DNA of 64,000 nt from Promethearchaeota archaeon. GTDB taxonomy: Archaea > Asgardarchaeota > Lokiarchaeia > Sigyniarchaeales > SOKP01. Below are positions 24,204-27,120 of the stretch, piece after piece. The translations under genes were made by a program, and so were the position numbers. How positions within the stretch are numbered: position 1 is the first letter of the stretch; each line of letters starts with the position of its first letter. Under the pieces are notes generated by a model. The model worked only from the letters and a program-made list of their open reading frames with translations. It did no database searches and was not told the origin of the DNA. Location of the stretch: assembly GCA_048938855.1 (NCBI GenBank), contig JBHLLT010000002.1, positions 32,001 through 96,000 on the forward strand, given 5' to 3'.

Positions 24204-24932
24204 TTACACCCCTATTGTTTTTAAGAATTCTTCTGTTACTTTAACAGGTGTCCCCATTGTAGACTTTAAATACATTGATTTAAAATTATTGAATCTATGA
24301 GGCATTTGATCTGCTATAAAATTCACGACAGTTTTCATATTTTCAAATAAATGTTCAGAGTTCATAGATTTTTTTCCTATCTTGGCAAATATAATAGGTT
24401 GCTTTTTCATCTGAATTCTAATAATTTTTTTATATCGTTCATAAGCTACTCTTAATTCATCTGGACTGGAAATAATTCCATATCCTGTAGGGAAAGGTTT
24501 GGGTATTTTACCGACGGGACCAAGGAATCTTGCTAGGTATCGAGCAACATCTCTCATCATTTTATCTTCTACGATAAAAAATTCATACTTTTTGGCAAAC
24601 TTTTTCTTAATCTTTTTTTCTTCGTTATTTAAATTAACTAAACCATCTGAATCAATGGTATCAATACCTAATTTTTTTGCTTCAAGCAATATCTCATCAG
24701 AAGCAATCACACAAATATTAGGTTTATCATTTACAGTGATATCATTAGATAAGATAATTTCCTTATCAATTCGGTTTTTAGGATCATTTAAATTAACATC
24801 TTTAATATTAATAATTAGGTCAATAGATTCATCAAATTTTCTAACTTTATCTTTAAAACCATCTTTTTTTATAACTGAAAAGTCTATAGCAGCATTTAAT
24901 GACTTTCTTAATAATTTATCATCTACTTTCAA
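24204..24932 (-). CDS. rpl1: Ribosomal protein uL1
   Basis: RKFDESIDL.IN.KD, LGP.GKIP.P, YLKSTMG.P; operon context. Confidence 0.95.
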   Translation of the reverse strand: MKVDDKLLRKSLNAAIDFSVIKKDGFKDKVRKFDESIDLIINIKDVNLNDPKNRIDKEIILSNDITVNDKPNICVIASDEILLEAKKLGIDTIDSDGLVNLNNEEKKIKKKFAKKYEFFIVEDKMMRDVARYLARFLGPVGKIPKPFPTGYGIISSPDELRVAYERYKKIIRIQMKKQPIIFAKIGKKSMNSEHLFENMKTVVNFIADQMPHRFNNFKSMYLKSTMGTPVKVTEEFLKTIGV

Positions 24933-24938
24933 TTTTAA

Positions 24939-25506
24939 TCATTCACCTCTTATTTTATCATCATACTCTCCATTGTCAATTCGTTTTTGAATAATCCTAG
25001 GATCCTCTCCTTCTACTGTTATACCTACTGACAATGCAGTTCCCAGCACTGTTTTTACTGCCGCTTTATAGGTCTTATCCAAAAATTTCTCTCTTTTACC
25101 TTCGACTACATTTTGAATTTGCTCAAGTGTCAAATTGCCAATTTTTTTCTCAGCTGTAGCAGATGTACCTTTTTCAGCACCAACTTCTTTAAGCAACAAT
25201 GATGCTGTAGAGGGTGTTTCAATGAAAATTTCAAACTGTTTTGTTTCTGGATCGCATTCTATTCTTACGGGTACAGTTAATCCTTTAAAAACCATCGTTT
25301 GCTTGTTTATCTCGTCCACTACGTCTTTAATATTTATACCTGTGGGGCCTACGGAGGGGCCTTTACCATTGCTTGACAAAAGCGATATGCTTTATGTAAT
25401 AGGCGGCCCTCCTGATGCATTTGGGGTCTAATCGAAACGATTATTAAAGATATACACTCCCACCAGTCACAAGAGCCTTAACAATAATTTTACCTTTATC
25501 ACTCAC
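24939..25506 (-). CDS. rpl11: Ribosomal protein uL11, spliced: exons 25506-25457, 25419-25399, 25362-24939 (164 aa)
   Basis: GGTGAG SD, then GTG. The spliced product reads [43 protein letters not shown]..., the canonical uL11 N-terminus; the rest of the gene is intact. Confidence 0.9.
25363..25398 (-). other. Putative BHB-type mRNA intron 2 of rpl11 (36 nt)
   Basis: Outer helix GGGCC/GGCCC, imperfect central helix GCCT/TGGT, bulges AT^T and AA^A; contains an in-frame TAA; removal gives CCT-ATA-GGC (P-I-G). Confidence 0.75.
25420..25456 (-). other. Putative BHB-type mRNA intron 1 of rpl11 (37 nt)
   Basis: Central helix TGGG/CCCA, bulges AG^T and AA^T, internal hairpin AATCG-TTT-CGATT; contains in-frame TAATAA; removal gives AGT-GCA (S-A). 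Confidence 0.78.
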
Positions 25507-25511
25507 ATATA

Positions 25512-25517
25512 CTCACC
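25512..25517 (-). promoter_or_regulatory. Shine-Dalgarno site for the true rpl11 start
   Basis: GGTGAG 5 nt upstream of GTG at 25506. Confidence 0.7.
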
Positions 25518-25757
25518 GTTTATAATTGAAAATCTTTGTTAAAAAAATATCTAAAAAAATATGAACGCTAAATTAATACAAATTTCTTTCCAATATCTTT
25601 AAATATATTGAAACCGCTTTAATTTGCGTCCTAAGTTTCTTAGAATAATTTTTTTAAACTTAGTGAGTTTTAGAATTAAGCAATATTAAAAAATTTTATC
25701 TTTCAAAAGGAGACTTTCAAAAATAAAGCAAAAAAAATCATTAAGGAGTTTGAAAAG

Positions 25758-25943
25758 TTAACCTCTACAACAAAGTCTTCTTCCAAATTCGAGATTACAC
25801 TTATAATATTCTTCAGACAAAATTTCTTTTACAGTATCATAATCTAAATTTACTATTTTAGCTATATCTTCAATAGCGTTTCCTGGAGTGGATATTAATT
25901 GACAAATTTTTTTTTTAATTTCTTCAGTAATTTCTACGGTCAT
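25758..25943 (-). CDS. Small HTH-like protein
   Basis: IEDIAKIVNLDYDTVKEIL helix-turn-helix pattern; C-terminal RRLCCRG. Confidence 0.55.
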   Translation of the reverse strand: MTVEITEEIKKKICQLISTPGNAIEDIAKIVNLDYDTVKEILSEEYYKCNLEFGRRLCCRG

Positions 25944-25974: not shown

Positions 25975-27120
25975 TTAAGTAGTAAATTTTATAATTTCAT
26001 CAACAATCTTGTAATTTGGTAAAATTAAATCTGCTGCTCCACTTTCGGCGGCGGCTTTGGGCATCCCATATAATATACTTGTTTCTTCAGATTCAGCAAT
26101 TGTTTTACCTCCTTCTTGCTTGATTGCCTTCAATCCAGAAGCCCCATCAGTTCCCATTCCTGTCAGTAAAATACCAAGCGTTTTTTCCTTATATACTCGA
26201 GCTGTTGAAAAAAACAATACATCGACAGAAGGTCTACAAAAATTCACAGGCTCCCCTTCATAAGTTCTTATACAAGGTTTATTATCTTTAACAATAACTT
26301 GCATATACATATCTCCGGGTGAAAGATAAATTATGCCTGATTTTATCTCTTCATTGTTCATACCTATTTTTACATTGGCTTTACATATATTTTTTAAAGA
26401 TGTGGCAAATTGTCGCATAAACAGATGGTTTAGATGCTGTACGACTAGAATTGGTACTGGAAAGTTTTTAGGGATCTCACTAAGAATCGTTCTTAAAGTT
26501 CTTGGACCACCTACACTCGCCCCTATTACTATTATTTTTGTCGGTACAGTTTTTATGGTAATCGGAGAGAGATCTAAAAAGTAATCCTCTGATCTTTGTT
26601 CTAATGACCTTTCTAATTCTATATAGGGGCCTCCCTTTGTTTTAATTTTTACTTCTTGGCTTTTCTGAATAAAAATATCTTTACTTAATAACCTTATTTT
26701 GTTATCAATTTTATTTACTTTTGCGATGTCTGCCATAATGATTTTTGAAATTAATTTGTCTTTAATAGTTGGAATTACCTCCTTCCATATTCCTTCAGGT
26801 TTAACGATATAATCATAAAATTTTAGAATAAGGGGAATATCAAGAGAATCTATATTGCTAGGATCTTTATCAGATAACACTATAGTAGTAATGTCAAACT
26901 GCTTAATTATAAGATAAAAAGGTGAGTACCAGGTTTTATTTTCAAACTCAATGTCGAGTATTAATAAATCAGGATTCTTGCTTTTAATTATTTTAATAGC
27001 TTCTTGTTCATTCCGAACAAGATCAACTACTTCTGTCTCTTTATGAGAAGAAAGCATATCAGATAGTAGAGTTCTGCGGTATGCTGACTCAGAAGCTATT
27101 AGTACTCTTTTAGGCATCAT
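25975..27120 (-). CDS. cheB: CheB-type protein-glutamate methylesterase with degenerate REC domain
   Basis: GASVGGP, VQH, RPSVDVLF, LTGMG.DG, YGMP catalytic motifs. Confidence 0.9.
   Translation of the reverse strand: MMPKRVLIASESAYRRTLLSDMLSSHKETEVVDLVRNEQEAIKIIKSKNPDLLILDIEFENKTWYSPFYLIIKQFDITTIVLSDKDPSNIDSLDIPLILKFYDYIVKPEGIWKEVIPTIKDKLISKIIMADIAKVNKIDNKIRLLSKDIFIQKSQEVKIKTKGGPYIELERSLEQRSEDYFLDLSPITIKTVPTKIIVIGASVGGPRTLRTILSEIPKNFPVPILVVQHLNHLFMRQFATSLKNICKANVKIGMNNEEIKSGIIYLSPGDMYMQVIVKDNKPCIRTYEGEPVNFCRPSVDVLFFSTARVYKEKTLGILLTGMGTDGASGLKAIKQEGGKTIAESEETSILYGMPKAAAESGAADLILPNYKIVDEIIKFTT

Follow-up and report, generated by a model that had tools for sequence, protein, structure and literature searches.

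The window analysed here is a 64,000-nt stretch of DNA from a member of the Promethearchaeota (Asgard) belonging to a Loki-type group, and its rpl11 locus raises the question of how the organism produces a complete ribosomal protein uL11. The rpl11 ORF as called (25379-24939, minus strand, TTG start, 146 aa) matches the Pfam domain L11_N (PF03946) only at profile positions 17-58 of 58, with 49.4 bits. This truncated ORF is without positions 1-16 of the profile, which include the invariant GGxAxxGPPxGP loop, in agreement with the observation in an initial annotation of this DNA that the uL11 N-terminus is missing from the called gene.

Anatomy of the rpl11 gene

The initial annotation had placed the missing N-terminus upstream of the called ORF, in three pieces split by 37-nt and 36-nt inserts that contain in-frame stops, and each of these elements was found on the minus strand. 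Exon 1 (25457-25506) begins with a GTG start at 25506 and encodes 16 amino acids plus two bases of Ser17. It is followed by a 37-nt insert (intron A, 25420-25456), classed as an HBh'-type relaxed bulge-helix-bulge (BHB), with two in-frame TAA codons at 25446-25441 in the exon-1 frame. A 21-nt micro-exon (25399-25419) supplies the last base of Ser17, the residues ASGGPP, and the first two bases of Ile24. The 36-nt intron B (25363-25398), a relaxed hBH or bulge-helix-loop motif, carries an in-frame TAA at 25394-25392, and exon 3 (24939-25362) runs from the third base of Ile24, followed by GPSVGP, to the stop codon. In both inserts the stops are met after 3-4 codons. The predicted spliced order of exon 1, micro-exon, and exon 3 is GGUGGGAG / UGCAUCAGGAGGGCCGCCUAU / AGGCCCCUCC. 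The TTG at 25379, used as the start of the mis-called ORF, sits inside intron B.

The joined exons (50 + 21 + 424 nt) amount to 495 nt, or 164 amino acids and a stop codon. L11_N is then matched over positions 1-58 of 58 with 72.9 bits, and the L11 RNA-binding domain (PF00298) is matched over positions 2-69 of 69 within exon 3; both uL11 Pfam domains are thus complete only once the exons are joined. The gene is followed on the minus strand by rpl1 (24932-24204) and then rpl10/P0 (24199-23303). The window's genome (G000) is a metagenome-assembled genome (MAG) of 3.95 Mb in 93 contigs, 97% complete with approximately 7% estimated contamination, in which rpl11 is single-copy. A second, intact copy, which the initial annotation had named as a finding that would point to a pseudogene, is therefore absent from this 97%-complete genome. 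Judging from the sequence comparisons described below, the uL11 mRNA of this single-copy gene almost certainly requires cutting and rejoining by tRNA-splicing enzymes.

Inserts in related genomes

We compared 113 rpl11 loci from Promethearchaeota MAGs, which reduce to 74 distinct N-terminal regions. The loci were drawn from 53 other genomes of the genus and from named GTDB contigs; all genomes compared are MAGs with 3-9% estimated contamination. Among the 74 N-terminal regions, 46 distinct intron instances fall at four codon-exact sites: site A after GG(S) (31-38 nt), site B within the Ile of GGPPI (31-36 nt), site D within the Val of GPAV (30 nt), and site C within the Asn of TGINIK (28-29 nt). 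The window's genome carries A and B and no insert at C, while two relatives (G005 and G045) carry A, B, and C, giving a gene of four exons. About half of the compared genomes have no rpl11 insert, and rpl11 is uninterrupted in other families of the same order. The alignment across relatives proposed in the initial annotation thus gave exact presence and absence at four sites; the covariation that it was also expected to provide is thin.

Several of the inserts in relatives are textbook motifs. The 28-nt site-C intron at L024:1467-1514 (G005) is a near-canonical HBh' motif, with the fold GCAU-[AAA]-7-8 bp hairpin-AUGC-[AUA] (z = -3.7), and introns at this site occur further in L008, L013, L014, L019-L022, L044, L049, L053-L055, and L058. 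The site-B intron of G067 is a perfect hBHBh' motif and is also the minimum free energy (MFE) structure (GGACC-ACCU-[AUA]-9 bp hairpin-GGGU-[UAA]-GGUCC; z = -4.5). An unrelated 31-nt intron at site B (L041:314-367 and L086) is likewise a perfect hBHBh', as is the 30-nt site-D intron of L110 and L118, located about 80 nt into the coding sequence (GGACC-AGCU-[GUA]-9 bp hairpin-AGUU-[AAA]-GGUCC). In the site-D and 31-nt site-B introns the outer helix consists of exon sequence, namely the GGACC...GGUCC codons in the Gly-Pro repeats, and the self-complementarity of these repeat codons may explain why the 5' region of rpl11 is an intron hotspot.

The distribution of the inserts is patchy even among close relatives. 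Genomes with 92-95% identity at the locus can differ in the presence of an insert: one pair of loci, 95% identical, is distinguished by an exact 35-nt B indel, and another pair, 93% identical, by an exact 28-nt C indel. In a quick maximum-likelihood tree of 60 rows, built from the 900 nt downstream of the intron region, the window's genome, with A and B, is sister to a genome with C only (support 100). The minimum numbers of intron-state changes on this tree are 9 for A, 10 for B, 12 for C, and 2 for D, counts that indicate patchiness rather than history, as the tree comes from a short linked region and recombination is possible. Searches with blastn-short found no other copies of inserts A, B, C, and B' in the window's genome, indicating that the inserts are not a repeated mobile-element family. 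Several alleles that lack intron B or C (e.g., L103, L078, and L129) match the spliced products, reading CCN AUA GG at B and GGC AUA AAU at C, and one metagenome contig retains UGGG-AG at site A without the intron. These spliced-looking alleles are compatible either with precise loss or with pre-adapted insertion sites. A metagenome scan for the spliced A junction matched only one intronless genomic contig. Taking the sites, folds, and distribution together, we tentatively propose, as a reading that falls a little short of probable, that the 5' end of rpl11 in Loki-type Asgard archaea is a hotspot at which EndA-type mini-introns arise again and again and are lost precisely, on the timescale of populations, at four sites in ~60 nt, a process that the self-complementary GGNCC codons in the GGxxxxGPPxGPxxGP motif would favour.

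Folds, cut sites, and splicing enzymes

The BHB described for insert A in the initial annotation, with a TGGG/CCCA helix and bulges AG^T and AA^T, is present. On the minus strand, the exon strand UGGG (25459-25462) and the intron strand CCCA (25422-25425) form a 4-bp central helix between two 3-nt bulges on opposite strands, AGU (25458-25456) on the 5' side and AAU (25421-25419) on the 3' side. All cells of this helix are paired (100%) in 9 homologues, and its CCCG and CUCA variants still pair. The inner helix has five pairs (87% of cells paired) and one A.G mismatch, and an outer helix is absent.

For insert B, the helices and bulges named previously are present, but the geometry is looser than had been described. 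On the minus strand, the outer GGGCC (25409-25405) and the central GCCU form the exon-2 strand (25401-25409) and are followed by the 5' cut-site loop AUU (25400-25398). The inner hairpin ACA(U)AAAGC/GCUUUUGU (25376-25397) is separated by a 7-nt linker (25375-25369) from the remaining elements (25357-25368), which are the central UGGU (25368-25365), the 3' bulge AAA (25364-25362), and the exon-3 outer helix strand GGCCC (25361-25357). The central GCCU/UGGU helix of the window's genome consists of three pairs (G.U, C-G, C-G) and a U.U mismatch, the fourth pair forming in G047, G058, and G067, and the 5' site is part of an internal loop. The 3' site is a clean AAA bulge between the 5-bp outer and 3-bp central helices. 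The outer helix GGGCC/GGCCC is paired in 100% of cells, with G-C, A-U, and G.U variants, and so is the inner hairpin. Insert B would therefore be best described as a bulge-helix-loop, with a canonical 3' site and a 5' site in a loop, and not as a canonical BHB.

Neither insert of the window's genome folds with an MFE better than that of shuffled sequences (z = +1.0 for A and -1.4 for B), and for insert B the MFE fold contains a competing pairing, CUAUU/AAUGG, for which relatives show no conservation. Folding energy is thus not counted as evidence, and the claim that the motifs of A and B are more than chance comes from the comparative data. The structures given above are paired in 94% (A) and 96% (B) of cells, and that of site C in 92%, as against 17-58% for slid partners. 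Compensatory double changes are few (two pairs in the B inner hairpin and one pair in C) and the sequences are close kin, so that covariation is supporting rather than decisive. Nothing in Rfam matches the interval 24800-25800 at E <= 1, and the inserts, at 36-37 nt, are too short to be self-splicing group I or group II introns, whose ribozyme core takes up hundreds of nucleotides.

The position of the cuts was examined by placing them behind bulge nucleotide 0, 1, 2, or 3 and joining the resulting exons. Cutting after nucleotide 2, the rule put forward in the initial annotation, restores the uL11 motif and the 164-aa protein in the window, and it is the only rule to yield conserved uL11 residues in all 46 distinct intron instances. 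The residues obtained are GGSAS or GGKAS at A, the latter carrying the residue found in other families, PPIGP at B, GINIK at C, and GPAVGP or GPVVGP at D. With the cut at position 3, 5 of the 11 site-A instances would read Arg or Asn and 1 of the 19 site-C instances would read Ile; cuts at positions 0 and 1 yield Asn, Lys, Tyr, Asp, His, or a stop. In cbf5 introns, cleavage occurs between the second and third bulge residues (PMC2738675).

The exons also bear marks of selection. All spliced N-termini equal those of intronless orthologues, with one residue variable (A/S/T). The micro-exon of the 18 A- or B-bearing genes has 1, 1, and 7 variable sites at the first, second, and third codon positions, respectively, as in intronless genes, a third-position excess that points to purifying selection on the spliced reading frame. 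In each central helix, the exon strand follows its intron: UGGG is present in 10/10 A-bearing alleles versus 2/62 A-less alleles, GCCU in 12/13 B-bearing versus 4/59 B-less alleles, and GCAU in 18/18 C-bearing versus 7/54 C-less alleles. These strands are fixed only where the intron is present, showing that synonymous codon choice is coupled to pairing with the 3' end of the intron. In every respect that can be assessed by sequence, the inserts behave like introns of the EndA type, with BHB or relaxed BHB motifs.

The window's genome encodes two EndA paralogues (PF01974; 197 and 202 aa), located in the regions C93:17001-17225 and C34:19990-20238, and one RtcB (PF01139) at C81:57677-58984. The first EndA most closely resembles the catalytic subunits of the enzymes from Aeropyrum, Sulfolobus, and Pyrobaculum, of which heterotetramer status is confirmed for Aeropyrum only. 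It aligns gap-free with the Aeropyrum alpha subunit (3p1z_B) across the Crenarchaea-specific loop, which reads INKPRLEYF in the Asgard protein and VEKPRGADF in Aeropyrum, with K44 and R46 conserved. In Aeropyrum it is this loop that allows EndA to cut non-canonical BHB and bulge-helix-loop substrates (PMC3241643), and Asgard EndAs have been reported as (alpha-beta)2 enzymes with an L1 loop (PMC5829648). With two distinct subunits and an L1 loop bearing Lys and Arg, the EndA pair of the window's genome has the features of the broad-specificity heteromeric (alpha-beta)2 type, and this assembly is predicted for it. Aragorn predicts 35 tRNA genes in the same genome, 23 of which it gives introns, and additionally a tRNA-SeC, a set that is probably incomplete, as several of the calls look distorted by non-canonical introns. 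An intron-rich tRNA set of this kind fits the Asgard tRNA genes described in the literature.

On this evidence rpl11 is very probably a three-exon gene whose transcript would be spliced by EndA and RtcB to encode the 164-aa uL11. In the primary rpl11-rpl1-rpl10 transcript, the first 150 nt of coding sequence would fold into two neighbouring splicing motifs. The first of these would be a bulge-helix-bulge with the UGGG/CCCA helix and the 3-nt bulges AGU and AAU, and the second a relaxed bulge-helix-loop with the 5-bp exon-exon helix GGGCC/GGCCC, a 3-bp central helix, the 3' bulge AAA, and a looped 5' site. A heteromeric EndA, whose catalytic subunit carries the Crenarchaea-type loop, would cut behind the second bulge or loop nucleotide, at positions expected after 25457, 25420, 25399, and 25363, and RtcB would join the 2',3'-cyclic-phosphate and 5'-OH ends, giving the junctions GGGAG/UGCAUC and CCUAU/AGGCCC. 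The 37-nt and 36-nt introns would be released, probably in circular form, and the mature mRNA would encode full-length uL11, while translation of unspliced mRNA would stop after 20 codons. We infer that cleavage, ligation, and circularisation proceed in this manner in vivo. The suggestion in the initial annotation that this Asgard archaeon has a multi-exon rpl11 with EndA-type inserts is thus supported by the comparative data and by the presence of EndA and RtcB genes.

Several other explanations of the interrupted frame can be set against splicing by EndA and RtcB. The inserts might be removed from RNA by a different nuclease and ligase, or by EndA with an unknown cofactor, particularly at the loose 5' site of B. 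That this site lies outside a 3-nt bulge would agree with such an activity, as would the weak folding statistics of A and B in the window's genome. We nevertheless consider it improbable, because the second-nucleotide rule extends over all 46 instances, including canonical hBHBh' introns at the same sites, and because the alpha subunit of the window's EndA has the very loop by which the Aeropyrum enzyme cuts bulge-helix-loop substrates. Less probable again is translational recoding, in which ribosomes would bypass the inserts by hopping, as in phage T4 gene 60, or by frameshifting. The inserts are indeed short (28-38 nt), structured, and early in the ORF, but two successive bypasses, and up to three in relatives, would be required, with unmatched take-off and landing codons (AGU..AAU for A and AUU..AAA for B) and stops starting 3-4 codons into each insert. 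Recoding also does not predict the endonuclease bulge geometry at the boundaries or the covariation between exon and intron bases.

That rpl11 is a decaying pseudogene, or that a truncated 146-aa protein is expressed from the TTG at 25379, has as slight a chance as recoding: gene callers do return exactly this ORF, but rpl11 is essential and has no other copy in the genome, the protein sequence encoded by exon 1 and the micro-exon is conserved, with only synonymous variation in the 18 A- or B-bearing genomes, and the shorter product would lack the GGxAxxGPPxGP loop. An artefact of assembly or binning, with inserts absent from the DNA of the organism, is scarcely credible. The genome is a MAG with some estimated contamination, which would allow for such an error, but no fewer than 35 distinct sequences have homologous inserts at these sites, which differ from one another by substitutions, and the relatives' genomes come from many independent projects and include closed chromosomes such as CP070831. 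Splicing of rpl11 by EndA and RtcB accordingly remains the reading that we prefer.

Precedents and further candidate split genes

The searchable literature treats archaeal protein genes as essentially intron-free. Full-text searches, with most subscription journals outside their scope, found BHB introns in archaeal mRNAs only in cbf5 (coding sequence) and HVO_1309 (5'UTR), and none in rpl11 or in any Asgard mRNA. This bears out two statements of the initial annotation: cbf5 as the established archaeal mRNA case is the sole coding-sequence case in searchable papers, and no description of BHB introns in rpl11 was found in searchable full text. A 2020 study counted just one archaeal mRNA BHB example reported earlier, and the references on this topic in a 2025 EndA structure paper are cbf5 papers only.

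The closest parallel is the intron of the cbf5 pre-mRNA in Desulfurococcales and Sulfolobales (Watanabe 2002; Yoshinari 2006; Yokobori 2009, PMC2738675). Like the rpl11 inserts, it is short, lies within the coding sequence, and is mostly a relaxed BHB; the two further share the rule of cutting between the second and third bulge residues, a heteromeric EndA, predicted in the case of rpl11, and patchy gain and loss among relatives (PMC2738675). The cbf5 gene has one intron and is found in Crenarchaeota, whereas rpl11, an essential ribosomal-protein gene of an Asgard archaeon, has two (three in relatives) around a 21-nt micro-exon, and its four sites lie within ~60 nt and differ between genomes 92-95% identical. 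Splicing of cbf5 has been confirmed by cDNA, while that of rpl11 is predicted from sequence. HVO_1309 of Haloferax volcanii (PMC7714728) is likewise an mRNA substrate of the archaeal splicing endonuclease, and its excised intron is circular; this intron, demonstrated experimentally, lies in an untranslated leader and leaves the reading frame uninterrupted, unlike the rpl11 introns in the coding sequence. The tRNA introns of Asgard archaea and Thermoproteales (PMC11291895; bioRxiv 10.64898/2026.10.13.758758; PMC5829648) resemble those of rpl11 in motif family, size (tens of nt), enzyme type, the occurrence of several introns per gene, and repeated gains, but their hosts are tRNAs rather than an mRNA. 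The mechanism proposed for rpl11 would thus be of the cbf5 type, and the sequence data support as new features the several introns per mRNA, the micro-exon, the essential ribosomal-protein host, the Asgard lineage, and a proposed rapid turnover at a hotspot. In eukaryotes, IRE1 cuts HAC1/XBP1 mRNA at two stem-loop sites, Trl1 or, in metazoa, RtcB ligates the ends, and the reading frame changes. That system resembles the splicing proposed here in applying a protein endonuclease and a tRNA ligase to an mRNA, and differs in using IRE1 rather than EndA, a different motif, and a single regulated intron in eukaryotic hosts.

If the splicing proposed here takes place, an essential ribosomal-protein gene, present in a single copy, depends on two splicing events on either side of a micro-exon, and on up to three in relatives. 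The lineage is the one nearest to eukaryotes, in which it has long been asked how split genes arose. Should the hotspot reading also be true, the closest prokaryotic relatives of eukaryotes would routinely carry multi-exon protein genes with micro-exons, and the tRNA-splicing machinery would be required to express these genes and perhaps the entire rpl11-rpl1-rpl10-rpl12 operon. The locus bears on how mRNA splicing by an endonuclease and a ligase operates under coupled transcription-translation and on intron gain and loss, and it offers a testable system, with defined junctions, a 126-nt substrate spanning 25350-25475, and identifiable enzymes. Current gene callers truncate split genes of this type, leading to gene-calling errors.

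A scan of the window's genome for strict HBh' motifs whose excision would bring two long ORFs into one returned 97,000 motif hits, with no excess over phase-shifted controls after ORF filters, so that such a scan cannot count mRNA introns. Individual candidates were nonetheless observed. A canonical 30-nt BHB (UAGC-[ACU]-hairpin-GCUA-[AAA]) lies in the AMP phosphorylase gene on contig C74 (~52211, minus strand), where it splits the HSTGG motif (MDVYDKHS/TGGVPGNK) between flanking ORFs of 186 and 336 codons; it was recovered independently by the genome-wide HBh' scan, as its one convincing case. In the RNase HII gene (L128:1524-1556; C81:88113-88742 of the window's genome), the Pfam match reads through one TAA in a stop-containing insert of roughly 30 nt at DEAGR/G, between GIDEAGR and GSVLGP, for which no clean BHB could be drawn by eye. 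Within the window itself, a 42-aa zinc-ribbon ORF (CPQCG..., 32040-32234, minus strand) has a hairpin-rich end, and a second CxxC (KCGDCGNIFKKD*) lies downstream, a layout that would fit another mRNA mini-intron.

Upstream of rpl11, ~100-130 nt from its start, the minus strand carries an element, CTTAGGACGCAAATTAAAGCGGTTTCAATAT (25603-25634), preceded by the inverted repeat CTAAGTT...AACTTAG. The element is conserved upstream of rpl11 across the genus, and a form reading TTAGGACG...CGG(C/T)TT is found in other families of the order. No Rfam family matches the element in the interval 24800-25800, and the genome has no second copy, which was looked for as a possible rRNA mimic. The element may be a leader or regulatory RNA, perhaps an L1 binding site, or a promoter-proximal element. 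Immediately before the rpl11 leader lies a 61-aa ORF (25758-25943, minus strand) with no Pfam match, in the position where secE/spt5 often adjoin rpl11 in other archaea, and the next gene beyond it is a response-regulator/CheB-like ORF (25975-27120).
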